From: Promethearchaeota archaeon
GTDB lineage: Archaea > Asgardarchaeota > Lokiarchaeia > Sigyniarchaeales > SOKP01
NCBI GenBank assembly: GCA_019058295.1
Contig: JAHPZI010000021.1
Span: 192,001-256,000, forward strand
DNA: 64,000 nucleotides
Direction of reading: 5' to 3'
Positions 6,049-42,580 of the stretch are shown in pieces (positions within the stretch are counted from its first letter, which is position 1; the number at the start of each line of letters is the position of its first letter). The position numbers and the translations under genes were made by a program. Under the pieces are notes generated by a model, which worked only from the letters and a program-made list of their open reading frames with translations, made no database searches and had not been told where the DNA came from.

Positions 6049-6804
6049 TTAGGTTTGATTTGAAATTTCAGAGGATTTCCATCCGCTAGATCGTCTAAAA
6101 ACAATCATTCCAACCGCAAAAGCTAATACTACTCCAGCAATCTCGTCAATTATGTAGTGCTGCTTCACAAATAATGTTGATAGCACAACTCCGACTGCTA
6201 TGATAAAAGCAATAATTGCTATAATTTTTCTCTTAAAAGTTGGATTTATTTTATAATACTGATACCAAGTGAAGAATAAAATAGTCGACATTCCAGCATG
6301 CATACTTGGTACGCAATTGAAACTTGTCTCGTGCGTATAATATAAGTACATTACATCTGCGAAAAAATTGCCTTGAATTTTATTAGACAAAAGCTCTTGT
6401 CTCCACCAGTAAGTTGATACGGGAAAAATGATATAGATAATGGTTGCGATAGCATTCATTATAACTACAGACCATCCTACACCGTAACCTTTCTCTTCAT
6501 CAAGTAAACCGAAATAGAATAAAGTTATAATTACCATTGGATAAAATAAAAAAACATAGAAAATGACCATTTCTGGAACAAATGGAATAAAATTTTCACC
6601 AAGAAAATCTAATCTATACCCTGTACCTTCAGGATATAAACTACCCGTCCAAGAGTACAAAATAAGCATTATGATAATTCCATATAAAAAAGCCATTAAA
6701 AATAAATTTCCTAAAATAAAGGTAAGTTTTCGGCTTCTTTTTGTAGATTTTCCCTTAAAAAAAACGGTTTCTACACCCTTTTGAAATTTGTCATGAATTT
6801 TTAT
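6049..6804 (-). CDS. PAP2-superfamily membrane phosphoesterase/phosphotransferase (AUR1/IPC-synthase-like); probable ATA start at 6804, first ATG at 6696
   Basis: NCVPSMHAG and QHYIIDE motifs, about 6 TM segments. Frame stays open upstream to 6810 behind AGGTGA. Confidence 0.75.
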   Translation of the reverse strand: MKIHDKFQKGVETVFFKGKSTKRSRKLTFILGNLFLMAFLYGIIIMLILYSWTGSLYPEGTGYRLDFLGENFIPFVPEMVIFYVFLFYPMVIITLFYFGLLDEEKGYGVGWSVVIMNAIATIIYIIFPVSTYWWRQELLSNKIQGNFFADVMYLYYTHETSFNCVPSMHAGMSTILFFTWYQYYKINPTFKRKIIAIIAFIIAVGVVLSTLFVKQHYIIDEIAGVVLAFAVGMIVFRRSSGWKSSEISNQT

Positions 6805-6842
6805 TGTTAATCACCTTTTATTTTTTATCTCCTAATAAACTG

Positions 6843-8561
6843 TTAAATGATTTTTTGGTATTGGAATGTTTGGTGTCCCTTTAATATTACAAATATCATA
6901 AAAATAAGAATAGTTACCGCTCCGATAAAAAATAGAATAACTAATCCTATAATAATAGTACTAAGATAAATTGGCGCATACAACAAACCAACTATGCCAT
7001 ATATAAGACAAATTACAAACATTCCGATTAAATTAAAAATTAAGATCAACCAATACAAGATACTCTTTCTTCCATCATACTCTCTTATTAACATTAAAAG
7101 ACGTATAACAGCATATATTATTAATCCTATAGTTAAAAATGATATACTTGTCTGAAAAATTAGGAGAAACAATATTTCAAGGCCATATATTAATAGAGTT
7201 AAAACAAATATTATTAACTCAATTATGAGAAAAATTATAGCCGCTGCGATAGAGATAACAAAGAGAGCAATTGTAAGCCCATCATAGAGTTTTTTAGGAA
7301 TTGGTGATAAAGTAATTGGTGGTGAATTGAATTGTCCTATATTAAATCCACAATTCATACAAAAGCGGGCATTAATCGTAACTGGCTGACCACAATTAGT
7401 GCAAAATTTAGCAGGCTTTTGTTGTGAAAATTGGGTATATTCAGAATGGTAACTATCATTAAACGATGTACATATAATATCTTCATTAACAACTATAATA
7501 CCTGTTTCGGGGCAACGATAAGTTCTTTTTGCAATTTTATTTGCTCGCCTTAAAAAGCCTAGCAGTAAAGCAAAAGACAAAGAACTTAATACTACATATA
7601 CAATAATTTGAAGGATTAGATCTAAATCTGTGCCTTGGGCGTTAATTGTATAAACGTAAAGTAGAATCCAGACGGAAGAAGTATTCCATAGAAAGTGTAT
7701 AGAAACGGGGATGAGCCAAAGAGGGATGAATCGCTTTAAAAATTTTATGAATTGACTTCCCATTGGGTGGTTCTCTTCTCCTCGCTCAAATCGAAGTCTT
7801 TCTGCTCTTCCTGCCGCAAATCCTCCAATTGAACCACCTAATATGTGGATTGGAGCCCAGTTCCTAATAGTTACCTGAAGATAAATATCAAAATAAAGAT
7901 CAAAGGCATTTCCACCATATAAAATAGTATATCCAAGATATGATATAAGTTCTATTATCTCAAATGTTATTCCTATTATCATACCGAAAAGAAATCCATT
8001 TAATTCGTTTCCAAGCATACCCTTTCCTTTTTGTTCAGAATTTCTGTTCCTCTGTAATACAATGAAAAATGCTAAGATACTGGGAAGAGATTTCAAAAAT
8101 TCTTCCCCAAGTGCGGGTGTAATCCCAATAGCACCAACATTATAGAATACTACAGCTAAAATTTCGTCTCTTGTAAAGTAATAAATACCATTTGCTGCAA
8201 GAAACCAAAGCTCCCCGATTCCCGAATTCCAATATGCTGCGAAATTAACTACACAAATCCCCATAAGGAAAAGCATTAATAAGTATTTATTACGACCACT
8301 GATTAATTTTTCACTTGGAGGATATTTTTTTGTTTTCCAAATATAAAATAATATCCATAATAGGTAGATGGTTAATGGTCCGATTATCATGTAGCTAATG
8401 ATCGTAATTAATTTTGCAGATGTAGGTATTTGATTGGATAATAAGACTAAAATCACAGTTATAGCGTAAATACCACATCCGATCATTGAAATTAACCAAA
8501 TTAATTTCTTGTGGAGGGCAAGTTTGATTTTTTCGGGTTTATAAGGATTATCACTACTCAT
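6843..8561 (-). CDS. PrsW-family intramembrane protease fused to a double zinc ribbon and extra TM helices
   Basis: GEEFLK, FEIIE, PIH and IHFLWN motifs; CTNCG...CMNCG. Confidence 0.78.
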   Translation of the reverse strand: MSSDNPYKPEKIKLALHKKLIWLISMIGCGIYAITVILVLLSNQIPTSAKLITIISYMIIGPLTIYLLWILFYIWKTKKYPPSEKLISGRNKYLLMLFLMGICVVNFAAYWNSGIGELWFLAANGIYYFTRDEILAVVFYNVGAIGITPALGEEFLKSLPSILAFFIVLQRNRNSEQKGKGMLGNELNGFLFGMIIGITFEIIELISYLGYTILYGGNAFDLYFDIYLQVTIRNWAPIHILGGSIGGFAAGRAERLRFERGEENHPMGSQFIKFLKRFIPLWLIPVSIHFLWNTSSVWILLYVYTINAQGTDLDLILQIIVYVVLSSLSFALLLGFLRRANKIAKRTYRCPETGIIVVNEDIICTSFNDSYHSEYTQFSQQKPAKFCTNCGQPVTINARFCMNCGFNIGQFNSPPITLSPIPKKLYDGLTIALFVISIAAAIIFLIIELIIFVLTLLIYGLEILFLLIFQTSISFLTIGLIIYAVIRLLMLIREYDGRKSILYWLILIFNLIGMFVICLIYGIVGLLYAPIYLSTIIIGLVILFFIGAVTILIFMIFVILKGHQTFQYQKII

Positions 8562-8728
8562 AGATAAAATCCAATTAATGAAATAATTTTCTTTTAATTT
8601 ATTTTTTATATCTTAAATTAGTTATTAGGTTTTTTTATAATAAATATATCTTTTCTTATAGGTAAATATGAATTCTAAAAAAAAGTTATTCAATATACTA
8701 CTAAAACGAGTTGGTATTAAGAATAAGG

Positions 8729-8778
8729 AAAAAAAAAAAAATTATATTATATGTTTGTTGCTTGATCTTTTAGATCAA
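8729..8778 (-). terminator. 3' hairpin and oligo-U tract downstream of the histone gene
   Basis: TTGATCT-ttt-AGATCAA at 8762-8778; A13 run at 8729-8741 (U tract on the - strand). Confidence 0.45.
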
Positions 8779-8782
8779 AAGC

Positions 8783-8998
8783 TTAGAAGTATTTAATTGC
8801 TAAAAGTATGTCATCTCTTGTGACTTTTTTCCTCTTAGCGTGTTTGGTTAATGAAAGGGCTGTTTTTGTTATTTTCTCAGCTGAGGATCCCATCCAATCA
8901 ACTAATTCGTCTACTGCATCTCGAGCAACAATAATAGCTCCATTGTGTTTCATAAGGCGTCTAATTGGACTCCAGCTGATATAATCTCTACCTGCCAT
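8783..8998 (-). CDS. Archaeal histone (HMf-like, no tail)
   Basis: PIRRLMK...VARDAV...HAKRKKVTRDDI histone-fold signature, 71 aa. Confidence 0.95.
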   Translation of the reverse strand: MAGRDYISWSPIRRLMKHNGAIIVARDAVDELVDWMGSSAEKITKTALSLTKHAKRKKVTRDDILLAIKYF

Positions 8999-9519
8999 AC
9001 TAATTCATTCCTCCACTTTTTATTTTTTTTTTATTTTAGGTTTAATTTTTATTTTAATTGTTACATAAATGAAGATCAAATATGTATTTAAAGATTTTGA
9101 TATTATCATAAATTTATGAAGAAAAAAATGAAAATGATTAAAAAATTTTGTCGGAAGATATATCAATGATCAATCTGGTGTAAGTTCGTGAGTTTCTGCC
9201 AGATTTTTAAATTTGTGAAAAAATGAATCCAGATTGCTATGATTGTTCAGAATTGTATATTAATTCACCAATTTGGCTTTAAATCAGAAAATAGAATTAA
9301 AAATAATTAAATTCCGATACGCTGATTCATGAATTTTTATAGTATCTATGAGTTAATAAAAATGATTTTGTTATAGAAAAAATATAATTCTCGAAATATT
9401 TCTATTATAGTTTACAGAAATAACTGAAATTGAAGCTAATTAAATTTTATAGATAAACAAATAGAAAACGGGTAAGCTTAATTATAAATTACAATTAATT
9501 AAAGTATTATAATTTCATA

Positions 9520-10794
9520 TTGCTGAGCGAAAGGTGTAAAATAAATTTGAATGATCAAGAAGATAAAATATTAGATCAAAAGGACAGAAAAAAGTTCGAT
9601 TTTTTAGGAGATAATCCTGTTGAACGGATTGAAGCGACAACGGAAATACCTATAATGTATTATGCATTGAACACTACTCCGAGAAAAGAGCATCCGTTTA
9701 ATGTTTATAATGATATAAAATCTGAACCAACCGCAGTAGGAAAGACCCTTGAGGTTGTTGTTGATTCAGTAAATAAAGTTGCAGATGAATTCATAAGACG
9801 AGATATAAGTCATATAGTCGGAATAGGAATGGGAACTAGTCAGTTTGTTATGCAATCGTCTGGTCCTGCATTTTGGGAATGGGCACACATTACATCAGAG
9901 GATAGAGATTCTGTAGAATGTCTTACCGTCGATAAACCCTATGATTTTCAACATACTGCTCTGTTTGCTTACAGTGGTAGTGGGAGCACAGCGGACACAA
10001 TCGCAGCAACAAAAAAGATCCATGAGAAGGGAGCATATTGTATTGCCTTAACATCAGTAGCAGAAAGCCCGATCACTAAGGAGTGTGATGATACAATTGC
10101 CTGCGCAGGGGGCTTTGATACTGGGGGATCTGATACATTTCATTATGCAACTAGATTAGCGGCAAGCTTATTATTAGCTATAGTTCTTGGAGAAAAGAAA
10201 GGGATAAGCGATATTAATTTCACAGATCTGAGAAAGAAATTATATGAAATACCGAAATTTATGGCAGAAAGATGGGAGTATAATGAAGAACGATGTAAAA
10301 GTGTAGCAAAATATTATTCTCATGTAAGAAGTATAATTATTGTCGGGGCAGGTCCTAATTTTGGTACTGCTGAAGAAATGGAACTTAAGTTCGAAGAAAT
10401 GGCACATATCCCTGCAAAATCTATGGTTCCAACGAGGCATCTTCACGGTGCTATAGGATTAACTGATGAAAAAATACTGACAATTCTGCTCTATCCCAAA
10501 AATAATTCAGAAAAATGGTTTGACCAAATTGCTAAATTTACGCAGATGATTAAAAGTCCATGCATTGCAATTTTACCGGATGATGAAGATAAAATCGCAC
10601 CATTGATGGATTGGGTATGGAGAACACCCGTTGATACCGAGCATCTTTTTGCTCTGTATGTAGTTCCAATCATTCAATTATATCCATACATGTGTGCTGT
10701 AGAACAAGGTGATATTAATCCCGACTGCCAAAAATCGAATATTCCTAAACACGCAAGAGCCTGGTCCATGATATTAAAACCAGGTGGTCATTGA
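9520..10794 (+). CDS. Double SIS-domain sugar-phosphate isomerase/deglycase (GlmS C-terminal/FrlB-like); likely start TTG at 9547
   Basis: GMGTS, SGSGST..T, GAGPNFGTAEE..LKFEE and HLHG; no glutaminase domain. Confidence 0.8.
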   Translation: MLSERCKINLNDQEDKILDQKDRKKFDFLGDNPVERIEATTEIPIMYYALNTTPRKEHPFNVYNDIKSEPTAVGKTLEVVVDSVNKVADEFIRRDISHIVGIGMGTSQFVMQSSGPAFWEWAHITSEDRDSVECLTVDKPYDFQHTALFAYSGSGSTADTIAATKKIHEKGAYCIALTSVAESPITKECDDTIACAGGFDTGGSDTFHYATRLAASLLLAIVLGEKKGISDINFTDLRKKLYEIPKFMAERWEYNEERCKSVAKYYSHVRSIIIVGAGPNFGTAEEMELKFEEMAHIPAKSMVPTRHLHGAIGLTDEKILTILLYPKNNSEKWFDQIAKFTQMIKSPCIAILPDDEDKIAPLMDWVWRTPVDTEHLFALYVVPIIQLYPYMCAVEQGDINPDCQKSNIPKHARAWSMILKPGGH

Positions 10795-11739
10795 CTGGGG
10801 TTTAAAATCGGCATTGTAGGTCCTTTAAATGTGGACTTAATAATGCGTGGGAGCGCTCCAACTGATATTAACGAATTGAACAACTGGGCGGGACCTTCTG
10901 ATGTACATTGCCTTACTGCTGGGGCTGCTGGATACATATCACAAAATCTTAAGAAATTGGGTAATGACATTCATATAGTATCCTGCCTTGGTGATGACCC
11001 GTTTGGTGTCATGATACTGAACTCGCTAGAGAAAATTGGGATCAATCCTCAGTTTATTCAAATTGAAAAAGGAAAACTTGGAGCAATCGGGATTTTTATA
11101 TTGCTATTTGAAAATAAAAAAAGACCGTTCACCTTCAGGTTGCCTACTCATCATGGATGGCCTCCTAAATTCGATAAAAAGACTAAAAAGCATTTATTAG
11201 ATGTTGATTTATTCCATTCTGCAGGATATCTTCATTTTTCTGATTTATGGAATACTGAAATCCTTGATCTCTTCAAAGAGGCTAAAAAGAGAGGCATTAA
11301 GACGTCTATCGATCCCCAATTCCCTTTAATCGATCTGAAACCTCCTTGGATTAAAATGATGGAATCGTTAATTCAATATATTGATATTATAATGGTTGAC
11401 GAAAATGAGGCTCTAAATTTAACAGGAAAAAATAATGTAGAAGATGCGGCGGAAGAACTTTTTGCTGCCGGATTTAAAATAATAGCAATAAAGCAAGGAG
11501 CCAATGGTGTCTTGGTAAAAAATTCCACCGAAAAACAACAAATTCCTGCAATCCCTCCTAAAAAGTTTATCGATAGCATCGGAGCAGGTGATTCTTTTGA
11601 TGCGGGATTCCTTCAAGGGTTATTGGAAGAAAAAGATTTAATCACTGCAACAAAAATGGGTGTTACAGCAGCAACCATGAGTATTGAAGGGACAGGAGGC
11701 ACTGAAACGTTTCCTGAAAGGAAAGATTTGAAATTTTAA
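10795..11739 (+). CDS. PfkB-family carbohydrate kinase; probable CTG start at 10795
   Basis: N-terminal KIGIVGPLNVD strand lies upstream of the track's GTG at 10831; DSIGAGDSF signature. Confidence 0.88.
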   Translation: MGFKIGIVGPLNVDLIMRGSAPTDINELNNWAGPSDVHCLTAGAAGYISQNLKKLGNDIHIVSCLGDDPFGVMILNSLEKIGINPQFIQIEKGKLGAIGIFILLFENKKRPFTFRLPTHHGWPPKFDKKTKKHLLDVDLFHSAGYLHFSDLWNTEILDLFKEAKKRGIKTSIDPQFPLIDLKPPWIKMMESLIQYIDIIMVDENEALNLTGKNNVEDAAEELFAAGFKIIAIKQGANGVLVKNSTEKQQIPAIPPKKFIDSIGAGDSFDAGFLQGLLEEKDLITATKMGVTAATMSIEGTGGTETFPERKDLKF

Positions 11740-11876
11740 ATTTTTTCTTTATAAATTTCCAAGGAATTTATTTATAAATTCTTCCACATAATGCGATAAA
11801 TCTGAAAAAGAAATAATAATTGTTACATTTTTTAATTTTCCTTGTTTGTTATAACTTAGAATAAAGAAAAACGATT

Positions 11877-12566
11877 TTGTTAGTAATGTCTAAAATCCTT
11901 GAAGAACTAGAAGAGCTATTTAAAAGTGAAACAATAAAACCCTCCTTTGAGATTGTTCACGTAATTTTAGCAATATTTATATTTGGAGAAAATCGAGATG
12001 GAATTGGTAGATATCGTCTTGAGAAGGAATTATTAATCGGTTCGGGAACCTCTAAATCTCTCATTAAGAGATTGAATAAAAATATTAATTTTATTTCGGT
12101 TTTGGATGAAAATATAAGGAAGGGCCATGTTTTAACTAAGGAGGGGTTAGACTTCATGGAAAAGATAAAACAGATAATCCCTTTTATCAGAGAGGGTGAT
12201 CTTTCAATTTTACAGGAAACGATTATCGATATGGAAAATAATAAAGTATGCTTCTGTCAAGTCAAGAACTATGGTGATAAATTGACTAACGGTATAGAGC
12301 AGAGAGATGCTGCTATAAAGGTTGGTGGTCTTGGGGCAACATGTCTTGTTTATGATGGAAAACAATTAGTTTTTCCATCTGGTTATAATGTCAATACAGA
12401 ACGGGCAGATTCGATCGTTAACGAAAGTGTTTATGAATATTTTAAAAGAGAAATCAATAAATTAGATTCAAAATTAGAACCTAACGATGTATTAATTATT
12501 GGATTAGGAGAAAATTTTGAAAGTGCAAGGTTAGCAACAGTTAATGCTGCACTAACATTATTTTAA
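11877..12566 (+). CDS. Winged-helix protein, DUF4443-like
   Basis: IGRYRLEKELLIGSG..KSLIKRL wHTH; GIEQRDAAIKVGGLGAT. Confidence 0.65.
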   Translation: MLVMSKILEELEELFKSETIKPSFEIVHVILAIFIFGENRDGIGRYRLEKELLIGSGTSKSLIKRLNKNINFISVLDENIRKGHVLTKEGLDFMEKIKQIIPFIREGDLSILQETIIDMENNKVCFCQVKNYGDKLTNGIEQRDAAIKVGGLGATCLVYDGKQLVFPSGYNVNTERADSIVNESVYEYFKREINKLDSKLEPNDVLIIGLGENFESARLATVNAALTLF

Positions 12567-12588
12567 TATAAATTAATTAGGGAATAAT

Positions 12589-13065: not shown

Positions 13066-13111
13066 AATTTGGGCGGATAAAAAATTCAGTGATGCCAAAC
13101 CGATTTAAAAA

Positions 13112-14335: not shown

Positions 14336-14555
14336 TTTTTTTTATTTTTTAATTTAATTTCATTAATTATTAGGGTTTTATTCCACTATGATTTTTAGGT
14401 TAAGTTAAATTTAACAGTATTGTATTTAATAATTATTATTACAATGCTGTATAAAAATCCTTTCGAAAAAAGTTACCGGATTTTCTGTAAAATCTCAATT
14501 TTTTTGAATTATTACTGGATTATATAACGCCCTAAAATTTTATAATCCAAATTAT

Positions 14556-15257: not shown

Positions 15258-15737
15258 TCATTTCTCCTCTCGTGTCTGAGTGTTATCCACTTGATCCATT
15301 CGTTTAATGTCAATAAAGATCATAAGGCCGCTTCCAATGGCTCCACCTAGGGCTCCAAATAATGTTCCAAATAACAAGATTATTATAAAAAGAATCCATC
15401 CGTACCCTAACTCACCAAAAATTAAGCCCGCAAATTGATCTAAATTAGCGTAAGCATTTCGAGTAATAATAGCAAAGGTCATATAAATTAACCAGACTAT
15501 TGTAACTCCTAAAGCACCACTATATATTCCACGTTTCATCTTTTTATTAAAAATTCCAGCAACCAACCCTGGAATTATAATTAACTGCCATATTTCTACA
15601 AATGTAAGAAAAAATGTAATAATAACCGCAAAAAAAGTCCCAATTAAAAAATTTATTCGAGCTAGTTTGATTTCTGGATTAATCTCTTTGTTTTCAGAAC
15701 CAATATTAAGTTTTCTTCTTATTTTCTTGAGAGCTAT
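15258..15737 (-). CDS. Small integral membrane protein; probable ATA start at 15737 (track start TTG 15566 is internal)
   Basis: Frame is open up to the upstream gene's TGA (15744) and adds a TM helix (NFLIGTFFAVIITFFLTFVEIWQLIIIPG). Confidence 0.6.
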   Translation of the reverse strand: MALKKIRRKLNIGSENKEINPEIKLARINFLIGTFFAVIITFFLTFVEIWQLIIIPGLVAGIFNKKMKRGIYSGALGVTIVWLIYMTFAIITRNAYANLDQFAGLIFGELGYGWILFIIILLFGTLFGALGGAIGSGLMIFIDIKRMDQVDNTQTREEK

Positions 15738-15743: not shown

Positions 15744-18587
15744 TCACCTTTTTTTGATCCATTGAACCAATGAATGATTCCACTCTTTAATTTTTGAAAT
15801 CTTCTCTTTCTTTTTGATCCATTGAATTAATATATTTCTCTCCTCTTTAATTTTTGAAATCATCTCGTTCTTTTTGATCCATTGAACTAATACATTTCTC
15901 TTTTCATTGATTTTTGGAATTATAGCATTCTTTCTTATCCAGCGAATCTCTATGATGCTAATAATCCCAATAATTAAGAAAATTATTGTAAAAGCTATCC
16001 ATTTGAGAGCTTTTTCAGCCGGAATAAAATGAAGTTGAGATTCAATTTTACTTTCAGGAAAATCTTCAATATCATCATAAAAATATTGAGGATGATATTC
16101 TCCTTCTAAAAATAATTTTAATTGGTCGTCGTAATGTTTGGAGTTTGAGTAACCACGTTGTCCAGAGGGAATTACACTTAAACAATTTTCAAGATCGCTA
16201 AAGTCGATAATCATTCTCTCTGAAGCTCCTCCTCTTGCGCTTCCTTCCCCATCGCTTATATCTACCCAAGAAGGAGTAATAGTATATCCTTCTCCATCCA
16301 ATTCATAAGGCCCTTTACTAAAAGTTTCTATTTCTAAAAGATGTTCAAAATACCCTTTATGTAGTTTTCCCCACTCCCAATCATCTACGTCATCTGAATC
16401 GTAGAAATCTTCAAGCCAATCAACCGTATCTAATAATGCTCTTAGAATAATATCATCTCTCTTTTCAACTTTGAGGGTAAAAATATCGTCAAACCATATT
16501 GAATTTGGATCTTCCCTGGTTAATTTTTCTAACACATTTAATTGAACATACTGATAAGCATCTAACGCATCAAATTCGTCTTCAAATGTATACTCCATAT
16601 AGAAATCGCGCCATTTGCGGTATATTGTAGGAGCAGATTTATCTTTATCCATGTCAAATTGCCAAGATTTAAGATGTGTATAAATTTGATTTATAATGGG
16701 AGCTTTTTCAAAAAACCCACTATTTTCAATTACATTGATTAAATAGGGTGTAAAAGATTCTGCGGCAGTGGATGTTATATCTAGTTGGATTTGTTTCATC
16801 GTTTCTACGCTTACACTCCCATCTTCAGAACCATTAAGTAATTCATTAATTCGTCTCGCTCGATAGCCTGCAGCATATTCTTGTTGAAGGAAATACTTTT
16901 TATATTCAGGACCTACAGCTATTTGGTTTGCAGAAGCCAGATAATGCTGGTCTGGATTTTCTGTATGGGGTAATTCTTCAAAAGGAATGTATCCAATCCA
17001 TTCGCCTTCGCTGCTCGATCCATCGTATGGGAAGGTTCCATTTTCATTTCCAGCTCTTATAGGCACTACTCCAGTTGGTCTAATTCCGATATTACCGTAT
17101 ATATCGCCATAGATCATATTCTGAGCGGGATTGACAAACCATTTTGAAGCTTCGTCAAATTCTGCTCTATTTGTCGCAAAAAAGAATTCATAAAATGCTA
17201 GAGCTTCGTATGTTATAGCATTAGCAGTCCATCTGGGGGCTATTACTATATTTTCATAATCAAGAGAGTCTGGAACCGCATCATCTAAGAAATCGTTTAA
17301 GACAGGACCATGCACGGTTTCTTTCACTTTAAATTCCACTGGATCTTTATCTTTTACGGGAATCTCATATTCTCTTGTTGTATATTTTTTTACCTGGCCA
17401 TTATGAATATAATGATTAGAATCTATCTCATTGTAATAGTACCAGTCTAAAACATCATATCCCGTGTTGGTGAAGCCCCAAGCGATATGTTCGTTATGTC
17501 CAACAATAACGAGTGGCACTCCTGGAAGTGTGAATCCATAGATATTTATCTCCGGATCTTCACACACGCCGTGGAATTCGTACCAAATACCTGGCATTGT
17601 CCAAGCCAAATGCATATCATTGCAGAGAATCGGAAAGCCTGTATCACTTTTTATGCCGTCGACTGCCCAGTTGTTCGATCCTAGGATATTCTGTTTTTTT
17701 AGATTTATTAATTGGTTTTCTGATTCAATATTTTCAACATTGGTTAGAAAACGTGATATAGCATTTAACGCTGAAGAACTTGGGTTTGGTTCATTATGTA
17801 GATTTAATGTATCTTCGTAAGATCCATAATTAGGGCAGATTGGTATTTGATATGGCTGAAAAGGACTATATAATTCATTATATCTCTGTTGTCCTAATGC
17901 CTCAAAATTGATCAATCTATACAAGTCATTGTAATCCCAAGTAAGCATATACGCCATGTACTTTGCGAAACATAATGAATCTGTCATTGTCCATTCAGTT
18001 GGCTTAAAACCCAATATTGCAAATTCGATGGGGAGCTCATTTTGGTGGGTATCTATATAGTAATTAATTCCATCGACATATCGTTTAAAAGAATCTAAAA
18101 AATCAATTTCCCCTCTTTCGTCTTTTTCTTCTAACATTTCAAGTGTTTTTTTCGCCCAATATTCCATTCCTAATGCTAGATTGTATTTATCGGATTCTAA
18201 CATCATCTCACCCGCAATTTCAGATAATCTTCCTCTGATAAGCCTTCTAACCATCTCCATTTGAAATAATCTATCTTGGGCATGGACATACCCCGCCGCA
18301 AACATTAAATCCTCTTCGTCTGACCCGTAAATGTGAGGTATGCCCCAGACATCACGATAAACCGTGATTTCATCATTTAGATCCTCAACATATAATGTAT
18401 CGTGCTCTGGAACCTCTCCTGGGACATTCCATACACCATTACCCGGAAAAAGGATATTTCCAAGAGGAGCAACAGGAGATCCAGTAAGCATTGCAATTAA
18501 TGGAAGGGAAAAAACTGAGTAGGTTAATCCAGTAATAAATCCAACGATAATTAGTTTTTTAACAATTACTTTTTCTTGCTTTTTCAT
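15744..18587 (-). CDS. Penicillin-acylase-family Ntn hydrolase, membrane anchored
   Basis: RDVWGIPHIY, GYVHAQDRLFQME, G|SNNWAV nucleophile, NDMHL; N- and C-terminal TM segments. Confidence 0.92.
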   Translation of the reverse strand: MKKQEKVIVKKLIIVGFITGLTYSVFSLPLIAMLTGSPVAPLGNILFPGNGVWNVPGEVPEHDTLYVEDLNDEITVYRDVWGIPHIYGSDEEDLMFAAGYVHAQDRLFQMEMVRRLIRGRLSEIAGEMMLESDKYNLALGMEYWAKKTLEMLEEKDERGEIDFLDSFKRYVDGINYYIDTHQNELPIEFAILGFKPTEWTMTDSLCFAKYMAYMLTWDYNDLYRLINFEALGQQRYNELYSPFQPYQIPICPNYGSYEDTLNLHNEPNPSSSALNAISRFLTNVENIESENQLINLKKQNILGSNNWAVDGIKSDTGFPILCNDMHLAWTMPGIWYEFHGVCEDPEINIYGFTLPGVPLVIVGHNEHIAWGFTNTGYDVLDWYYYNEIDSNHYIHNGQVKKYTTREYEIPVKDKDPVEFKVKETVHGPVLNDFLDDAVPDSLDYENIVIAPRWTANAITYEALAFYEFFFATNRAEFDEASKWFVNPAQNMIYGDIYGNIGIRPTGVVPIRAGNENGTFPYDGSSSEGEWIGYIPFEELPHTENPDQHYLASANQIAVGPEYKKYFLQQEYAAGYRARRINELLNGSEDGSVSVETMKQIQLDITSTAAESFTPYLINVIENSGFFEKAPIINQIYTHLKSWQFDMDKDKSAPTIYRKWRDFYMEYTFEDEFDALDAYQYVQLNVLEKLTREDPNSIWFDDIFTLKVEKRDDIILRALLDTVDWLEDFYDSDDVDDWEWGKLHKGYFEHLLEIETFSKGPYELDGEGYTITPSWVDISDGEGSARGGASERMIIDFSDLENCLSVIPSGQRGYSNSKHYDDQLKLFLEGEYHPQYFYDDIEDFPESKIESQLHFIPAEKALKWIAFTIIFLIIGIISIIEIRWIRKNAIIPKINEKRNVLVQWIKKNEMISKIKEERNILIQWIKKKEKISKIKEWNHSLVQWIKKR
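15750..15945. repeat. About 3.3 copies of a 60-bp tandem repeat encoding a 20-aa basic tail unit
   Basis: tttttgatccattgaa at 15751, 15811 and 15871; protein ISKIKE.RN.L.QWIKK repeats. Confidence 0.9.
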
Positions 18588-29735: not shown

Positions 29736-29897
29736 TAATGTTACTCATCTTATTAGATATTTTAATGAAATTATTAACCAAATTTTAAACAATATATAAT
29801 TAATATTATCTATCAAAAAATTATTAAGAATTTTTAAATATGAATAAAAAAACACAAATATAATAAAAGAAGATATAATAAAAATAGGTGTTTTAAA

Positions 29898-30182
29898 ATT
29901 TATTATCGAGGATATATTCTAGTCCGTCTAAAAATCATTGGTACTGAATGGAAAGTAGTGGAAAAATTGAAAGGTTTAAAATCCACCGACCCTGGTGAAA
30001 ATTGGATGGTAACATATTCTACACCAGTCTATGGTGGATGGGATCTGATTATCGAATGCTCATTTAGTAATCTTCAAGATTTAGATAAAATTGTTACTTT
30101 TTGTAGAGTTGATGATGAACTTGGTCAATGGATAGAAGAAACAACTACATTAGTTTCATCGCGTCCTGATTGGACAAAATAA
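29898..30182 (+). CDS. Lrp/AsnC C-terminal (RAM)-like domain protein; probable ATT start at 29898
   Basis: In-frame upstream YYRGYILVRL supplies the first beta strand; PVYGGWDLII...ETTTLV. Confidence 0.65.
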   Translation: MYYRGYILVRLKIIGTEWKVVEKLKGLKSTDPGENWMVTYSTPVYGGWDLIIECSFSNLQDLDKIVTFCRVDDELGQWIEETTTLVSSRPDWTK

Positions 30183-33275: not shown

Positions 33276-34241
33276 TTAGGATTTTGATAACATTCTAACG
33301 GATTCTTCAGCTTCTTTCATAATACGCTCAATTAATTCTTTAACCGTAGGGATATCGTTAATTAGCCCAACACCTTGACCGCAAGCAATGATTCCAGCTG
33401 TTAAATCGCCCTCTTCGTACATCAATTTTGATTTAGCTCCTGCCGCAGCATTGAATATCTCCGATTGATCACCTTTCGATGCTTCTATTTCGAGCACTCT
33501 TTGAGCTGCCTTGTTACTCCAGACTCTATGTGTTGCTCCGATAGTTCTCATAATTATAGATGTATCGTAGATCGTGGCACTCAGAAGAGCTTGTTTTAGA
33601 TTTTCATGGATCGGACATTCTTTTGTGGTCAGAAGACGTGTACCTATTAAACCTCCCTCTGCTCCTAATGCTAGTATCGCAACTAATCCTCTTCCATCTG
33701 AAATACCTCCTCCTCCCACAACGGGAATATCTATTGCATCAACAGTGGCGGGGGTTAATACAAGAGTTCCGATATCAAACTTTCCTGTGGCTCCACCATT
33801 TTCCCAACCGACGACCTCAACAATATCGGCTCCAAGAGAAGCTGCTTTTTTTGCATATCTTACACCAGCACATTTATGGATCCATGTTATATCATTTTTT
33901 TTGAAAAGAGGGATGTACTTTTCAGGTGCTTGATGACCAGATGTTTCAATAATTTTGACCCCTTCCTCAATCATGGTTTTAACTAAATCAATTTGCTTTA
34001 CGGGTTTTAACATGGGAAATAAATTTAGATTTACTGCAAATGGTCGATCAGTTAAACTCATAAGTTCTCTAAGAGCCTCACGTAAGGGTTCAGGTTTGCG
34101 AAACATTACTGATGCCATTATTCCGAGCGCACCGGAATTTGAACATGCAGCAGCAAACTCTGGATATGAGATATTCATCATATTACCGCAAAAGATAGGA
34201 TACTTTAAATGTAACATTTCTGTTACTCTTGTTTTAAACAT
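33276..34241 (-). CDS. Nitronate monooxygenase / FabK-like flavoprotein
   Basis: KTRVTEML...YPI, PFAVN, GGISDGRG and GTRLL.TKEC. Confidence 0.88.
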   Translation of the reverse strand: MFKTRVTEMLHLKYPIFCGNMMNISYPEFAAACSNSGALGIMASVMFRKPEPLREALRELMSLTDRPFAVNLNLFPMLKPVKQIDLVKTMIEEGVKIIETSGHQAPEKYIPLFKKNDITWIHKCAGVRYAKKAASLGADIVEVVGWENGGATGKFDIGTLVLTPATVDAIDIPVVGGGGISDGRGLVAILALGAEGGLIGTRLLTTKECPIHENLKQALLSATIYDTSIIMRTIGATHRVWSNKAAQRVLEIEASKGDQSEIFNAAAGAKSKLMYEEGDLTAGIIACGQGVGLINDIPTVKELIERIMKEAEESVRMLSKS

Positions 34242-34372
34242 TTTACAACACCTATAGAATTTGATTTTATAAAAAATGGTTTTTTCTGTTAATTCTAATT
34301 ATTTTGTTAAATTATAAAACATTAACTATTATAATTTAAATCTTGATATAATATGGAATATTTCTAAAGAAC

Positions 34373-37131: not shown

Positions 37132-38279
37132 TATTTCCCAAATTCTTGTATAGCTTTATAAAGTGCAACAATATTTTCTGGTGGTTGATCTAATAGAAAA
37201 TTGGTAGGGCCTGGAATATAACCTCCTTTTTTACCTAAAGTCTGTATACTTTTTTTAACTGAATTTCTTACGGATTCAGGCGATTCATAATTTAACATTT
37301 CTGAATCATCAATTGTTCCAACGAGAGTAATTTCTGGGTATTTTTCTCGATACATTGAGAGATCATTATTTTTTGGTTTTAAAGATTCTACACCATCAAT
37401 GCCAATTTCAACAAAATCCGGAAAAATTTCGTGAAGATTTCCACAACTGTGTAATATGAATTTAGCACCCCCATCGTGAGCCATTTTTACGTAATTAGCT
37501 AATATTGGTTTGATAAATTTGCGCCAATGTTCCGCAGGCATTTGGAGACCTATGTTATATCCATAGTCATCTCCACACATTACAACCTCAGGTTTAGTTT
37601 TCATTATCATTTTCATCAATGGCTCTTCCATGGTTTCCCATTGAAATTCAATATGTTGTTGAAGGTAACTTGGGTCCTTTCTGGCAAAACGCGCAAAATT
37701 TGCATGTCCAATTCCAAAAATACAATTTTCGAATGGACCAGGTTGACCTTGAGAAACTACAATATCATATTTTTTTAACATGTTCCTTCGAATTTTAGCA
37801 AAGTTACTAACACTATCCTGACTCGGTCTTAAATCGTTTGCTTTACTCCAATATTCTTCAATATTTTCTTTTTTTAAAAGTGCAGGACCTGAGAACCACC
37901 AGTGTGGAATTCCCTCATCACGAATAACAACCTTGAAATAGCCCCCATTGTTAATAACATAATCATTTAAGGTTTCTAATTTTATCGGTAATCCTGTTCC
38001 AGTGGTTCGCCAACATAAATCAATCTTTGCGTCTAAACCTCCTGGTAATATCTCAGGTGGAGAGAACTTTGCTATAATTGCATACATAAACGGAGGAGTA
38101 TATGATACTTTATCCTTATCTAATTGTTTCATGTCCTCATCAGTTAAAGCAAACGGAGATTTCATGAATTTGTCAATAAAATCAAAGTCTCCACCTAAAC
38201 AAAAACTTGGAACTCTATCGGGAATTTTTCCCTCTAAAACCGTTAAGATTCTCTCAAGAGCAGACATTTTTTCCGTCAT
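37128..38279 (-). CDS. Uroporphyrinogen decarboxylase / MtaA-CmuA superfamily protein
   Basis: DDYG, LHSCG and GGYI. Confidence 0.8.
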   Translation of the reverse strand: MTEKMSALERILTVLEGKIPDRVPSFCLGGDFDFIDKFMKSPFALTDEDMKQLDKDKVSYTPPFMYAIIAKFSPPEILPGGLDAKIDLCWRTTGTGLPIKLETLNDYVINNGGYFKVVIRDEGIPHWWFSGPALLKKENIEEYWSKANDLRPSQDSVSNFAKIRRNMLKKYDIVVSQGQPGPFENCIFGIGHANFARFARKDPSYLQQHIEFQWETMEEPLMKMIMKTKPEVVMCGDDYGYNIGLQMPAEHWRKFIKPILANYVKMAHDGGAKFILHSCGNLHEIFPDFVEIGIDGVESLKPKNNDLSMYREKYPEITLVGTIDDSEMLNYESPESVRNSVKKSIQTLGKKGGYIPGPTNFLLDQPPENIVALYKAIQEFGKY

Positions 38280-38281
38280 TC

Positions 38282-38647
38282 TTAGCCAGCAACACCCAAT
38301 AATTTTGCTAAAACTGTTAAAATCTCAAAATTATTCAATTTAACTTTACCTTCCGCAATTGCATCCCTTATCCCAGCTGGTCCTTTATAAAGTATTTCGG
38401 TAGAGAGAGCCAAATATTCATCACATTCAATATTATCTAAATCCTTAGGATCTTCTATATCTTCTAAAAGTTCGATTTCAAAATCTTGTTTATCAACCCT
38501 AACCATGAATGCTGGAGGAGAATCAGTTAAAAGCACAACTACTTTAAGTGGTAAATTCGGGAAAACTTTCTCTAATCTTCTAAAAGTTCGAAGAATCCAT
38601 AATGCAGAGTATATCATTGCTGGAAATCCTTCAAATAGAGGACACAT
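38282..38647 (-). CDS. SCP2 (sterol carrier protein 2)-like protein
   Basis: CDEYLALS...AIAEGKVKL pattern. Confidence 0.55.
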   Translation of the reverse strand: MCPLFEGFPAMIYSALWILRTFRRLEKVFPNLPLKVVVLLTDSPPAFMVRVDKQDFEIELLEDIEDPKDLDNIECDEYLALSTEILYKGPAGIRDAIAEGKVKLNNFEILTVLAKLLGVAG

Positions 38648-38701
38648 TTTTAGAATTTTTTAATTTAATTGGTTTTTAACCTTATAAAATAGGAGATATA
38701 T

Positions 38702-39367
38702 TTAATATTTTTTCTCAATAATAGCTTTTATAGCATCTTTAAAAATTGTCGTACCCATTTGCTTATAACCCTCAACTGAAAAATGAAGACCATCTATGTA
38801 AGCGCACTCTTTTTTTAAGTTTCCTTCCTCATTTTTCATTCCAATATATAAATCTGCAAAGGGAATCTTATTATTTTTAAAATAATCCCGCAACATATTG
38901 TTAAGAGCAATTTTCCTTTTGTTATAAGCTTTGTTGGATTGTTCCATTCTTATTGGAGGAATGGTTCCTCCTATTGAAAATATTTTAAATTCTCTGGAAA
39001 TTTCGTGTAATTTTTTAATATTTTCAAATATTTTCTCGTTTGGGATGCCCCACCCTAAATCATTAGTACCTCCAATAATTATTGAATAATTAGGTTTTGG
39101 CTTATATCTAAGTAAATCATAATTAATTCTTTGTAGAAAATTGCTTGTTAGCTCCCCGGGAATTCCTTTATTAACGAAAAGCAAGTCATTACTAGTTTCC
39201 TCATCTATTTTCCGTCCCTTTCCTTCAATGTATTCTATACATAATTTTTTTAACCAAAATTCGTATTGAGAATTGTAATTACCATAACCCTCAGAAATTC
39301 CATCTGGTGCAGGGTCATAACCAGGATAACCAGCCGTTAAGGAATCTCCTAGACATAAAAATATCAT
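38702..39367 (-). CDS. SGNH/GDSL hydrolase
   Basis: GDSLT, NKGIPG, GGTND and DGLH. Confidence 0.92.
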   Translation of the reverse strand: MIFLCLGDSLTAGYPGYDPAPDGISEGYGNYNSQYEFWLKKLCIEYIEGKGRKIDEETSNDLLFVNKGIPGELTSNFLQRINYDLLRYKPKPNYSIIIGGTNDLGWGIPNEKIFENIKKLHEISREFKIFSIGGTIPPIRMEQSNKAYNKRKIALNNMLRDYFKNNKIPFADLYIGMKNEEGNLKKECAYIDGLHFSVEGYKQMGTTIFKDAIKAIIEKKY

Positions 39368-39372
39368 AAAAA

Positions 39373-40044
39373 TTACTCTGCTTCTATTTTTAATAATTTT
39401 ATAATATCTTTAATACTAACAAATGATAAATCTTTTACAATTAAATCTGCAATTAATAACTCTTTTTCATCATGGGTTGTTGTAATGGCAATTGATTTCA
39501 TACCAGCTCTTTTTGCAGCTTCAATACCTACTGGAGCATCTTCAATTACTATACAATTTTCAGGTTTAACATTAATATTCTCTGCAGCGATTAAAAATAC
39601 GTCAGGTTCAGGTTTACTTCTTGATACTTCAGCAGCAGTTATAATAACGTCAAAGTATTTTTTAATTTTTAAAGTATTTAATAATAATTCAACATTTTCA
39701 GGAGGACCGCTTGAACCTACAGCTAATTTAAATCTCTCGTCTTTAAGAGTTTTTATTAATCCAATTGCTCCCGGTAAGGATTCTAATTTATCTTTTACCA
39801 TTTCTCGATAATAAAATTCTTTCAGATTTGCTCTCTTAACAACTTCTTTATCATCAACTTCATCCCCTAACAATTTACGAGTGATAATTACGCTTTGTTG
39901 GCCAAAAGTATCTTCAAAAAATTCTCTCGTAAATTCGACGCCTATTTCATTAGCCATTTTTACCCAACTCTCGAAATGGATAGGTCCTGTATCAGCCAAG
40001 ACTCCGTCCATATCAAAGATAACGCAATAATCACTATAAGACAT
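39373..40044 (-). CDS. HAD-superfamily phosphatase (beta-PGM-like)
   Basis: FDMDGVL, KPEPDVF and IEDAPVG. Confidence 0.92.
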   Translation of the reverse strand: MSYSDYCVIFDMDGVLADTGPIHFESWVKMANEIGVEFTREFFEDTFGQQSVIITRKLLGDEVDDKEVVKRANLKEFYYREMVKDKLESLPGAIGLIKTLKDERFKLAVGSSGPPENVELLLNTLKIKKYFDVIITAAEVSRSKPEPDVFLIAAENINVKPENCIVIEDAPVGIEAAKRAGMKSIAITTTHDEKELLIADLIVKDLSFVSIKDIIKLLKIEAE

Positions 40045-40127
40045 AATTTTATCTATAACGTCAAATTATTTAATTATTATAAAGAATTAAAATAGGCTAA
40101 TAATTTTTTGCGATACAATAACAGAAT

Positions 40128-40202
40128 GACCCTGTAGCCTAGCATGGATGGGGCGTTAGCTTGCGGAGCTAAAAATCGAGGGTTCAAATCCCCCCAGGGT
40201 CA
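40128..40202 (+). tRNA. tRNA-Arg(GCG)
   Basis: Acceptor GACCCTG/CAGGGTC, anticodon arm TTAGC-TTGCGGA-GCTAA, T loop TTCAAAT. Confidence 0.92.
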
Positions 40203-40233
40203 TATTGTAATCTAATGCTCATTAGAGATTACT

Positions 40234-41712
40234 TTAGTTTTGGTTTTGGTTTTTTGATTCTTGAACAAGAATCCAATAATTTTTAACCATTTCTTCCAAG
40301 TTAGTAAAGCTAGGAATGTTATTATTAGCTAACAACTGTGATATATATGCAACTTCCTTTGCCTCACCAATCAACCAGAAGAAAATCGGTTTTGAGATTT
40401 GATTTGTATTTTTTATCATTTCATCAACATTATATTGTTGTCTAAAGCGTTTTGAGCAAAAGAGCATATTGAAAAGGCCTTCTATCTCAGGTTCGCCCAG
40501 TATTGCATCATATACTAATTTTAATAAAACTGAGCGATTTATATTATTTTTCTGGGCTTTCTCCATTGCTGGCCAAATATCTATGAGACTGAATCGATTT
40601 GGGGGCATCCAGGAGGGGAATATCTCTTCAAGGGTTTTATATGCCTTATCTCTAAAAAGGGGTAGATTTAAACCATGTTGCATAAGAAGATCCGCAAGAA
40701 TTGTGCCAGCTCCTCCTGATCCAACTATTATTGCGACGCCACCACCTTTTTGGGGTAGTTGCTTCCCTGTATTATACATCATTGAAAATGTTCTGGCAAA
40801 CTGAAATAATTCATGGAAGCTGTGAGCTCTTATTACGCCAGACTGTTTGATTATAGCTTCAGTCAATTGTGAGTTTTCTGCAAGAGATCCTGTATGGCTT
40901 AAGGTTGCCTTTTTTCCTTGAGACGTTAACCCGCCTTTAACTAAAATTAAAGTCTTCTTCGGGATGGTTTTCGCTTTTCTGCATAATTCAATGAATTTTC
41001 TCGGATCTTTAAATGATTCTAGATATATTGCAATAACATTGACGGTAGAATCTTCAAGAAAATATTCAAGAAACTCTATTTCACTTAAATCTGGTTTATT
41101 TCCAATTGTACATGAATATCTAAAACCGATATCAGGATATTTCTCCATTATATACATTAAATACCCACCGTTTAACATCCCGGATTGACTTATTATCGCA
41201 ATATTTCCTCTTTTATAATTATTGAAAACACCGAATCCACTAAAAAATCCTCCTTTTTCTTCACTAGTGCTATCATTATCAAATCTCGTGATTCCCATGC
41301 AATTCGGCCCAACAATTCTTATTTTTTTAAAATTATCGGTAATTTTAAGGATTTGATCTCTCAATTCTAAACCTTTATCGGTACCCACTTCTTGAAATCC
41401 CGCAGTTTGTATGATTGCTCCCTTAATTCCTTTTTGAATACATTCCTTTAATATCTCAGGGACAACCTTATTTGGACTATAAAAAATCGCAAGATCAACC
41501 TCATTTTCAATATCCAAAACTGATTTCTTAATCTCTAAGCCATACATTTTACCCTCTGTATTAGGGTTTATAGGATAAATCTCTCCTTTAAAATTATTAA
41601 GTGTGAGATTATTTACAATCCAGTTTCCTCCCTTTAATGGATTTTTGGAAGCACCAATGACCGCCACTGATTTTGGGTTCAGGAATAAATTGATAATATC
41701 ATTATTAGACAA
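40234..41712 (-). CDS. NDP-forming acyl-CoA synthetase alpha subunit
   Basis: PKSVAVIGAS, GPNCMG, SQSG and SHTGSLA (phospho-His). Confidence 0.88.
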   Translation of the reverse strand: MSNNDIINLFLNPKSVAVIGASKNPLKGGNWIVNNLTLNNFKGEIYPINPNTEGKMYGLEIKKSVLDIENEVDLAIFYSPNKVVPEILKECIQKGIKGAIIQTAGFQEVGTDKGLELRDQILKITDNFKKIRIVGPNCMGITRFDNDSTSEEKGGFFSGFGVFNNYKRGNIAIISQSGMLNGGYLMYIMEKYPDIGFRYSCTIGNKPDLSEIEFLEYFLEDSTVNVIAIYLESFKDPRKFIELCRKAKTIPKKTLILVKGGLTSQGKKATLSHTGSLAENSQLTEAIIKQSGVIRAHSFHELFQFARTFSMMYNTGKQLPQKGGGVAIIVGSGGAGTILADLLMQHGLNLPLFRDKAYKTLEEIFPSWMPPNRFSLIDIWPAMEKAQKNNINRSVLLKLVYDAILGEPEIEGLFNMLFCSKRFRQQYNVDEMIKNTNQISKPIFFWLIGEAKEVAYISQLLANNNIPSFTNLEEMVKNYWILVQESKNQNQN

Positions 41713-41896
41713 TATTTTAGCACTTTTTCTATTTTGTTCACTATTCTTAATAATTCATGAAATTGTTCCTAATTCATAATTTTTTTGATTTATCTCTAAT
41801 TATAATTTCTTTAAAAGAAATATTTAAAAATAGAACTTATATAGGTTTTATTATAAAAAGAATTTTAATAAATAAGAATATAGGTGGACATCTACA

Positions 41897-42580
41897 ATAT
41901 CATACGCAGATAAAATTTATCAAGCGGCAGAATGGATAAAAAATTCCAAACATCTTGTAGTATTTACGGGAGCGGGAATTAGTACAGAATCAGGGCTCCC
42001 TGATTATCGAGGGATTTGGAGCGATGATGTTGATAATCAAACTCGCTATAATGCTCTAGCTGTAGACTGGAAAAATGTTAAACCCAATAAAGGTCATAAA
42101 GCATTGGTTAAATTACAAGATTTAGGTATGTTAAAATTTCTTATTTCCCAAAATATAGATAATCTCCATAGAACCTCTGGAATTCAAGATGATTTAATCG
42201 CTGAGCTCCATGGTAATGTCACTTTGGCAAGATGTCAAGATTGTGGAAAAAAATATGCGAAAACCTGGGATCGTCCTAATAAGTGTTCTTGTGGAGGTCC
42301 AATTAAATCATTTATTATAAAATTTAATGACGAGATGCCAAAACAGGAATTAGCCCACGCTTTTGAACATTCAAAGCAAGCTGATGTTTATCTAGTGGTT
42401 GGCTCCTCACTTATCACCCAACCAGCAGGTAGTTTACCGAGGATAGCAAAAAGAAATGGTGCAAAGTTAATCTTTATAAATCGAGGTGAAACAACTTTAG
42501 ATAGATTAGCAGATTTAAGATTCAATGAAAATTCCAACGATGTCTTAACCGCAATCGTGGAAGAAATTAAAAATGAATAA
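41897..42580 (+). CDS. Sir2-family NAD-dependent deacylase (SIRT6/7-like); probable ATA start at 41897
   Basis: FTGAGISTESGLPDYRG lies in frame upstream of the track start (42104); SQNIDNLH, ELHGN, CQDC/CSC and GSSL. Confidence 0.9.
   Translation: MSYADKIYQAAEWIKNSKHLVVFTGAGISTESGLPDYRGIWSDDVDNQTRYNALAVDWKNVKPNKGHKALVKLQDLGMLKFLISQNIDNLHRTSGIQDDLIAELHGNVTLARCQDCGKKYAKTWDRPNKCSCGGPIKSFIIKFNDEMPKQELAHAFEHSKQADVYLVVGSSLITQPAGSLPRIAKRNGAKLIFINRGETTLDRLADLRFNENSNDVLTAIVEEIKNE

Follow-up and report, generated by a model that had tools for sequence, protein, structure and literature searches.

Five genes of a Lokiarchaeia-type Asgard archaeon with probable near-cognate translation starts behind Shine-Dalgarno motifs

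The window, i.e., the whole stretch of DNA that was analysed, comprises 64,000 nt (G000:C21:192001-256000) and comes from an Asgard archaeon of the Lokiarchaeia/Promethearchaeia type, whose assembly G000 is 3.2 Mb long, consists of 30 scaffolds with N gaps, and has 31% GC and an estimated completeness of 79%. Five of its genes, encoding a sirtuin, a PfkB sugar kinase, a RAM-module protein, a PAP2-superfamily membrane protein and a small multi-pass membrane protein (Table 1), share the same organization at the 5' end: an in-frame stop is followed by conserved coding sequence, and no ATG, GTG or TTG occurs for 12-69 codons. An earlier note on this DNA had pointed to these five genes as having coding sequence ahead of any standard start, and all five sites are as it described them. 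A candidate near-cognate codon (ATA, ATT or CTG) stands at a short distance behind a GGTG, which is part of a Shine-Dalgarno (SD) motif; counted from the last G, the distance is 10 nt in the sirtuin gene, 8 nt in the PfkB gene and 7 nt in the other three, thus within the 7-10 nt proposed earlier, and the two canonical starts offered for comparison, one ATG and one GTG, were likewise found 7 nt behind GGTG. The five open reading frames (ORFs) are intact from end to end, with no frameshift or internal stop, and three of the five proteins match a Pfam family above the curated cut-off (SIR2, PfkB and PAP2). Very probably, the five genes are functional and translated from near-cognate starts, namely AUA for the sirtuin, PAP2 and membrane protein genes, AUU for the RAM gene and CUG for the PfkB gene, and such starts are a habit of the lineage. 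The exact initiating codons are inferred from the SD spacing and the alignments described below, and methionine is the putative first residue.

Table 1. Coordinates of the five genes with candidate near-cognate starts and of two canonical starts in the window
Feature	Position	Strand	Candidate or canonical start	Codons	In-frame stop upstream	SD motif	First canonical start
Sirtuin (Sir2-family deacylase)	41897..42580	+	ATA 41897	227	TAA 41873	AGGTGG 41882-41887	TTG 42104
PfkB sugar kinase	10795..11739	+	CTG 10795	314	TGA 10792-10794	AGGTGG 10782-10787 (GGTG 10783-10786)	GTG 10831
RAM-module protein	29898..30182	+	ATT 29898	94	TGA 29841	AGGTG 29886-29890	GTG 29958
PAP2-superfamily membrane protein	6049..6804	-	ATA 6804-6802	251	in-frame TGA contained in the SD motif	AGGTGA 6816-6811	ATG 6696
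Small multi-pass membrane protein	15258..15737	-	ATA 15737-15735	159	TGA contained in the SD motif	AGGTGA 15749-15744	TTG 15566
Canonical comparison start	34239..34252	-	ATG 34241			GGTG, 7 nt before the start	
Canonical comparison start	44388..44401	-	GTG 44390			GGTG, 7 nt before the start	

Each of the five proteins was searched in 40 relatives of the same order, denoted below by G numbers, and the start regions were aligned. This comparison of N-termini, which had been proposed as a check, placed an ATG at the codon aligned to the candidate start for the sirtuin, PfkB, RAM and PAP2 proteins. The sirtuin scores 103.9 bits against Pfam SIR2 (PF02146), for which the cut-off is 24. Its first canonical TTG is located 69 codons after the ATA, past the segment FTGAGISTESG, and a start at this TTG would drop the GAGISTESG NAD-binding motif. 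Among the homologues of the relatives, which share about 45-53% identity, seven have ATG exactly at the codon aligned to the ATA, and most of the others have ATG within a few codons of the aligned position, at the beginning of the pattern M-[DE]-L-E-E-K-I..AAKWI. The gene has a divergently transcribed neighbour upstream and no co-directional gene. Most of the homologous genes in the relatives (loci L002-L020) start with ATG, are preceded by AT-rich sequence that contains no SD, and appear leaderless. The presence of AGGTGG before the ATA of the window, set against these SD-less ATG homologues, agrees with the notion that a near-cognate start requires an SD-led mRNA.

The PfkB kinase has a match to Pfam PfkB, and a start at its first canonical GTG would lose the first beta strand. 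The gene follows a SIS-domain gene (9520-10794), whose TGA stop abuts the CTG, and the SD lies inside the end of this upstream gene. Three orthologues from the same genus, with 58-63% identity and the same upstream gene, have ATG exactly at the position of the CTG, and the aligned starts read ATG-G[GD]Y-KIG in the orthologues versus CTG-GF-KIG in the window. The orthologues (L022-L024) carry a spacer of 12-33 nt between the SIS stop and the start, which is gone in the window (10780-10800). The end of the SIS gene has also changed, from GGAGAACAT-TAA in L022-L024 to GGTGGTCAT-TGA in the window, and this creates the GGTG SD 8 nt before the CTG. The junction is spanned without gaps by contigs of X2 and X4, two sets of contigs from other sequencing runs. 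A separate X2 contig (depth 7.6) joins window position 9362 directly to 11780, skipping 2417 nt, which indicates a co-occurring strain that lacks the SIS-domain and CTG-start PfkB genes as one cassette.

At the start of the RAM protein gene, the string AGGTG-TTTTAAA-ATT is identical in G005, G006 and G007, with differing third-codon positions downstream. The aligned codon is ATG in G003, G004, G001, G010 and G017. ATC and ATT occur outside the genus: G022 has ATC, and in G014, which belongs to another genus, the codon is ATT behind GGTG, and the first canonical start occurs only inside the conserved core. The AlphaFold model, based on 21 orthologues (pLDDT 85.5), predicts a beta-alpha-beta-beta-alpha-beta module whose strand beta1 spans residues 2-11, upstream of the first canonical GTG (residue 21), and translation from this GTG would lose strand beta1 together with part of helix alpha1. 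A Pfam search with this protein gave no hit; the best Protein Data Bank matches of the model in Foldseek, 2cvi (E 2.7e-4) and 2e1a (E 5.2e-4), both with a TM of 0.78 by target, and 2zbc (TM 0.72, E 6.2e-3), are stand-alone RAM modules. Judged from its modelled fold, the protein is a stand-alone RAM module as well. The earlier label "Lrp-like" therefore holds for the RAM fold only, since the protein has no helix-turn-helix domain and is not an Lrp regulator. As in the case of the sirtuin, the neighbour upstream is divergently transcribed, and no co-directional gene precedes the RAM gene.

The PAP2 protein matches Pfam PAP2_3/PAP2, and a start at its first canonical ATG would cut 36 conserved residues. 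The string AAGGTGA-TTAACA-ATA is common to the window, G005 and G007. At the aligned codon, ATT occurs in G008 and G003 and ATG in G004 and G018, so that G003 and G004 differ by ATT versus ATG in an otherwise near-identical context. A further in-frame TAG is located seven codons 5' of the TGA. The public gene call for PAP2 is exactly the truncated form of 215 aa, which bears out the expectation of the earlier note that gene callers truncate such genes.

The small membrane protein has a weak match to Pfam DUF5518. The TGA contained in its SD motif is the stop of an upstream penicillin-amidase gene (15744-18587), and the ATA follows 6 nt after this TGA. If translation began at the first canonical TTG, the first transmembrane helix would be missing, as would the conserved WQLIIIPG motif. 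The arrangement GGTGA-N6-ATA-GCT-CTC is kept in G005 and G007, where an additional in-frame TAA is inserted between the TGA and the ATA. In other genera the gene starts with ATG or GTG behind AGGAGG-type SDs, and the proteins retain the helix that a start at the TTG would remove. The start is thus conserved, but no relative has ATG at the same aligned codon. Taken together, a given start position is occupied by ATG in some relatives and by a near-cognate codon in others, and the near-cognate codon is kept within clades; this is the pattern expected of functional starts and not that of errors or decay.

Such starts were also looked for in the whole genome. The words enriched upstream of ATG starts are pieces of GGAGGTGA, and when the ATG starts are aligned, the SD spacing has a peak at 5-8 nt and a range of 4-11 nt. 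The motif GGTG singled out by the earlier note is present at all five sites, but among ATG starts only about 5% have GGTG itself in front of them; the motif proper can be any stretch of GGAGGTGA, of which a 5-mer is found before about 12% of ATG starts and a 4-mer before about 28%. The SD was accordingly defined by the 4- and 5-mers of GGAGGTGA in place of GGTG alone. The genome-wide test considered in-frame codons of ORFs with a length of 120 codons or more; each codon had to lie no farther than 15 codons from the ORF opening and to precede the first canonical start by 10 codons or more. It scored the presence of a 5-mer SD 6-9 nt upstream of the codon. A first design, in which all positions ahead of the canonical start were counted, had given a weak enrichment, and this was resolved by the use of near-opening positions and of the spacing profile. 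The observed matches exceeded the expected ones for ATA (20 versus 5.6), ATT (24 versus 6.9), ATC (4 versus 1.8), CTG (3 versus 0.4) and ACG (2 versus 0.5), and the codons AAA, AAT, TTA, TAT and TTT pooled gave 10 SD matches in 2509 positions. For ATA, ATT and ATC together the count was 48/1197, versus 45/6426 for all other codons (odds ratio, OR, 5.9; p 6e-16). In the spacing profile these three codons peak sharply at 7-8 nt, whereas AT-rich control codons give a flat curve. Further support was provided by a frame control of the same three codons at SD spacing, with 51/95 in frame with a long ORF and 8/214 out of frame (p 1.6e-23). The genome-wide count that had been suggested earlier therefore revealed a real excess.

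The test returned 53 matches in 50 ORFs. Several of the candidates have familiar N-termini, such as the ribosomal proteins uS12 and uS3, TFB, a flavodoxin, an ABC ATPase, HisA and CopA, and in two small GTPases the P-loop lies inside the extension. The Pfam match of uS12 begins 13 codons upstream of the first canonical codon, and position 1 of the HisA Pfam model corresponds to the codon immediately after the ATA. Near-cognate starts thus probably occur also in essential genes, of which uS12 is an example. V-ATPase subunit D is a doubtful candidate, as its match begins one codon before the first canonical TTG.

As for their frequency, near-cognate starts are estimated to occur in at least about 1.5% of the G000 genes; this corresponds to about 40 true cases in which a 5-mer SD is present and the gap measures at least 10 codons. 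Overall they probably occur in 3-6% of the genes. A mixture model of coding potential found coding-like sequence before the first canonical start in about 4% of 2312 genes when 8 codons were considered and in about 2% when 12 codons were considered; its separation is weak (about 0.2 bit per codon) and noisy on 1.2-Mb samples, and these values serve as a rough bound only. The window, with its five cases in about 55 genes, lies above the genome average. Hence, the earlier claim that this lineage "routinely" initiates in this way stands as regards a lineage habit with a genome-wide excess, but the habit concerns a few percent of the genes and not a majority.

The same test was applied to a 1.18-Mb subset of G000, to 1.2 Mb of G001 (LW40_45 MAG, a metagenome-assembled genome of the same genus) and to 1.2 Mb of the complete genome G032, which belongs to another family of the same order and equals G000 in GC content (31%) and in SD use (14% of ATG starts). 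For ATA, ATT and ATC versus other codons, the OR was 6.7 (p 5e-8) in the G000 subset, 4.0 (p 9e-4) in G001 and 1.8 (p 0.3) in G032. The frame control gave 22/37 in frame and 1/84 out of frame in the G000 subset, 11/28 and 4/58 in G001, and 4/19 and 0/48 in G032, and the density of in-frame sites was 18.6, 9.2 and 3.3 per Mb, respectively. The trait is therefore graded: G000 has it strongly, the genus has it too, and in the sister family it is low, though perhaps above zero. Since the gradient separates families of equal GC, AT richness alone does not produce the trait, and the start-codon stringency of the lineage appears to be lower than that of the sister family. The near-cognate trait is thus evolvable and no simple by-product of AT richness.

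The mechanism that we propose is a conventional SD-led initiation on an unconventional codon. The SD, as part of GGAGGUGA, would pair with the 3' end of the 16S rRNA and place the P site of the 30S subunit on the codon 7-10 nt downstream, where the initiator Met-tRNA, with its CAU anticodon, would presumably read the near-cognate codon with one mismatch. In AUA, AUU and AUC the mismatched base would be the third of the codon, in CUG the first. A likely origin of these codons is AT-biased mutation of ATG to ATA or ATT, which would be tolerated where the SD is good.

Sequencing or assembly errors could produce a similar picture, either by a miscalled base in an ATG or by an indel that puts a canonical start out of frame and so conceals it. 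The source is a 79%-complete metagenome bin with gapped scaffolds, and canonical codons do occur out of frame near some of the sites, for example ATG 6794 and TTG 10791. However, genomes of other species that were assembled independently (MAGs of the TEKIR_6S and AMARA_1S type) have the same ATA or ATT with the same SD, and errors would be neither frame-specific nor concentrated 7-8 nt behind SD motifs. In addition, contigs from other sequencing runs, obtained in the same study and in another one, were compared across the PAP2, PfkB and membrane protein starts, and X2, X3 and X4 contigs span these starts with 0 gaps, a comparison that excludes indels only and does not cover base-by-base identity at the starts (640 base differences). 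Errors are thus extremely unlikely as the explanation, and this reading is largely refuted. A second set of doubts concerns the coding sequence itself, which might be left unexpressed upstream of genes that are translated from the first downstream ATG, GTG or TTG, or that are young pseudogenes. This reading draws on the lineage-specific deletion that removed the ancestral spacer and ATG context of the PfkB gene, on the co-occurring strain without the SIS-PfkB cassette, and on the fact that G000 has at least six Sir2 matches, the sirtuin among them, so that loss of the sirtuin would be tolerable. Yet shortening would deprive the products of the Sir2 GAGISTESG motif, the first PfkB strand, RAM strand beta1, the conserved N-terminal segment of PAP2 or the first transmembrane helix of the membrane protein, and the extensions of these intact ORFs are kept at the protein level across genera. 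The SD and the near-cognate codon are retained in G005, G006 and G007 with synonymous changes downstream, which is the opposite of the pseudogene decay without conservation that the earlier note had named as a possible refutation, and essential single-copy genes such as uS12 have the same pattern. Downstream initiation or pseudogenization is, on this evidence, unlikely.

The juxtaposition of two of the five starts with the stop of an upstream gene raises yet another explanation, i.e., translational coupling, in which ribosomes re-initiate after the upstream gene, or recoding, in which readthrough of an in-frame TGA produces fusion proteins. The CTG of the PfkB gene and the ATA of the membrane protein gene are both adjacent or close to such a TGA, and both stops are in frame. 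On the other hand, the divergent neighbours of the sirtuin and RAM genes leave nothing from which re-initiation could occur. Only 32% of the genome-wide candidates are within 30 nt of an upstream co-directional gene, versus 49% of the ATG genes with an SD and 13% of the ATG genes without one, which together with the divergent neighbours argues for SD-led initiation in general and not for termination-reinitiation. The extra in-frame TAA of the membrane protein gene in G005 and G007 rules out a readthrough fusion there, the additional in-frame TAG stands against it in PAP2, and TGA is an ordinary stop in G000, where it closes 267/1963 long ORFs. Coupling or recoding is therefore very unlikely to account for the five genes.

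Translation from near-cognate starts remains our preferred reading, and several observations weigh against it. The ATA of the sirtuin and the CTG of the PfkB gene are not confirmed in a second species; for the sirtuin, even the best relatives reach only about 45-53% identity, so that no independent assembly confirms the ATA. A recent lesion may account for the PfkB start, given that the spacer deletion removed the ancestral ATG context and that the X2 strain is without the SIS-PfkB cassette, and CTG as a putative start codon is drawn from few cases. A strong SD is not universal among the near-cognate orthologues of PAP2, as G003 and G008 have a weak one, AGGGA only. The membrane protein gene has several more in-frame ATA, ATT or ATC codons downstream, which makes its exact start uncertain, and of the five genes it is the PfkB and membrane protein genes whose initiating codon is the least secure. 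The frequency estimates given above are model-dependent, and those of the mixture model are noisy. Lastly, a SUI1/aIF1 search of the 79%-complete G000 assembly, aimed at a factor expected to set the fidelity of initiation, gave no match, a gap that is probably due to the incompleteness of the assembly.

This factor is of interest for the regulation of near-cognate starts. In bacteria, the gene of the initiation factor IF3 (infC) is autoregulated through its AUU start. For eukaryotes, autoregulation of eIF1 through a weak start, an AUG in poor context, is reported by Ivanov et al. 2010, as cited in PMC6237735, and according to work cited in the same article aIF1 discriminates against non-canonical starts in Sulfolobus. 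The aIF1 gene (SUI1, PF01253) was found in 35/40 relatives, including all nine of the same genus. In 16 of the 18 family-f1 relatives shown, the stretch from the in-frame stop to the zinc knuckle at the N-terminus (ICPxCS..LCxC) contains no ATG, GTG or TTG, and the gene has a conserved (AAGGTT)GTGA motif with ATT or ATC 10 nt behind it. The other two, G013 and G016, do contain a GTG, which belongs to the same GTGA motif. In the sister family the aligned start is TTG, GTG or ATG, with ATA in G030 and G034. Comparison by eye of the aIF1 KRKWG loop and GDHR motif between the families revealed no difference.

The leaders of the family-f1 aIF1 genes (L229-L236, L240, L246-L254) carry a conserved AAGGTTGTGA, in which TTG-TGA forms an in-frame start-stop pair just before the ORF opening at the ATT or ATC 10 nt on; this pair may belong to the SD or constitute a minimal upstream ORF.

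By analogy with IF3 and eIF1, the conserved AUU/AUC start suggests that aIF1 may act on its own near-cognate start, in a feedback that would fix the set-point of stringency. The likeness consists in a conserved ATT/ATC start behind a conserved GTGA motif; unlike the IF3 and eIF1 cases, the feedback is only inferred for aIF1, and AUU is not unique to the aIF1 gene in these genomes. A further proposal, which we regard as speculative and rather doubtful, is that stringency is set low and held by this aIF1 feedback, so that the SD-AUA and SD-AUU genes would form a "stringency regulon" following aIF1 activity. If true, it would be a prokaryotic, SD-based counterpart of the near-cognate initiation controlled by eIF1 and eIF5, in the archaea to which eukaryotes are most closely related.

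Near-cognate initiators are well studied for single bacterial genes, and a genome contains a handful of isolated cases; infC and pcnB of E. coli are initiated at AUU, and ATT, ATC, ATA and CTG are listed as alternative initiators in NCBI translation table 11 (see also PMC5499595). The archaeal starts would resemble the bacterial AUU genes in the SD-led mRNA, in the reading by the initiator tRNA with one mismatch, in a weaker and SD-dependent initiation and in the discrimination by fidelity factors. They differ in their number, since here at least 1.5% and probably 3-6% of the genes are concerned, including those of ribosomal proteins, and in the factors, which would be aIF1, aIF1A and aIF2 and not IF3. 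In eukaryotes, initiation at CUG, GUG, ACG, AUU and AUA is tuned by the levels of eIF1 and eIF5 (PMC3326321, PMC5714202). The archaeal case is similar in that a/eIF1, a/eIF1A and a/eIF2 are homologous and that the output of a class of genes would follow the global start stringency; unlike eukaryotes, which rely on cap scanning and Kozak context, the SD positions the ribosome here, and the prevailing codons are AUA and AUU, whereas in eukaryotes CUG is regarded as the strongest start other than AUG (PMC11706245).

In Asgard archaea, a "rare ATT start codon" was inferred for the tubulin gene AtubA of a Kariarchaeaceae (Heimdallarchaeia) MAG (PMC13394414). As in the genes described here, the public call is truncated, the first beta strand is missing and the ATT is at the distance of a ribosome-binding site; AtubA was treated as an exception, being a single gene from another Asgard class, with no genome-wide or comparative analysis. 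Ribosome profiling of Haloferax reported that about 30% of the new initiation sites were near-cognate and set them aside (PMC7261190). In the literature searched, no description of systematic near-cognate initiation in Asgard archaea was found, and for archaea there were indirect hints only. The phenomenon itself is therefore known, and what is new is its occurrence at the scale of a lineage.

One practical consequence is that, in these Asgard genomes, a few percent of the proteins are cut short or overlooked by gene finders restricted to ATG, GTG and TTG. Structure predictions, inventories of domains and the search for eukaryotic signature proteins are biased as a result. Common AUA and AUU starts combined with an AUU-start aIF1 would also make this lineage a natural system for the setting of start stringency of the archaeal and eukaryotic type, and the same lineage would show whether eIF1-style feedback predates eukaryotes.

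Two further explanations of the ATA starts were considered and rejected. Reassignment of ATA to methionine is contradicted by the presence of a tRNA-Ile(UAU) and by ATT being as frequent as ATA, and this equal frequency also led to the rejection of A-to-I editing of AUA as a general cause. As regards the tRNAs, an initiator tRNA was not found in the G000 assembly, where the only CAU tRNA sits in an atypical tRNA array. This array is located outside the window (G000:C22:30777-31516) and consists of nine tRNA genes head to tail in about 750 nt, with gaps of 5-16 nt, in the order Lys-UUU, Ile-UAU, Arg-UCG, Met-CAU, Trp, Arg-UCU, Val, Lys-CUU and Ile-GAU. An encoded CCA end is present in at least two of the genes, Met-CAU and Ile-GAU, and the Met-CAU tRNA has an A1:U72 pair, yet a weak, GC-poor anticodon stem. 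By its appearance, the array resembles a viral or mobile tRNA array more than ordinary archaeal tRNA genes; the occurrence of tRNA-Ile(UAU) in it is notable.

In the window, one more gene deserves mention. The CoA-ligase-like gene at 40234-41712 is preceded, at 41712-41754 on the minus strand, by 14 stop-free codons (IIKNSEQNRKSAKI...) ahead of its first canonical TTG, with a neutral coding score, and it is a possible sixth near-cognate case.

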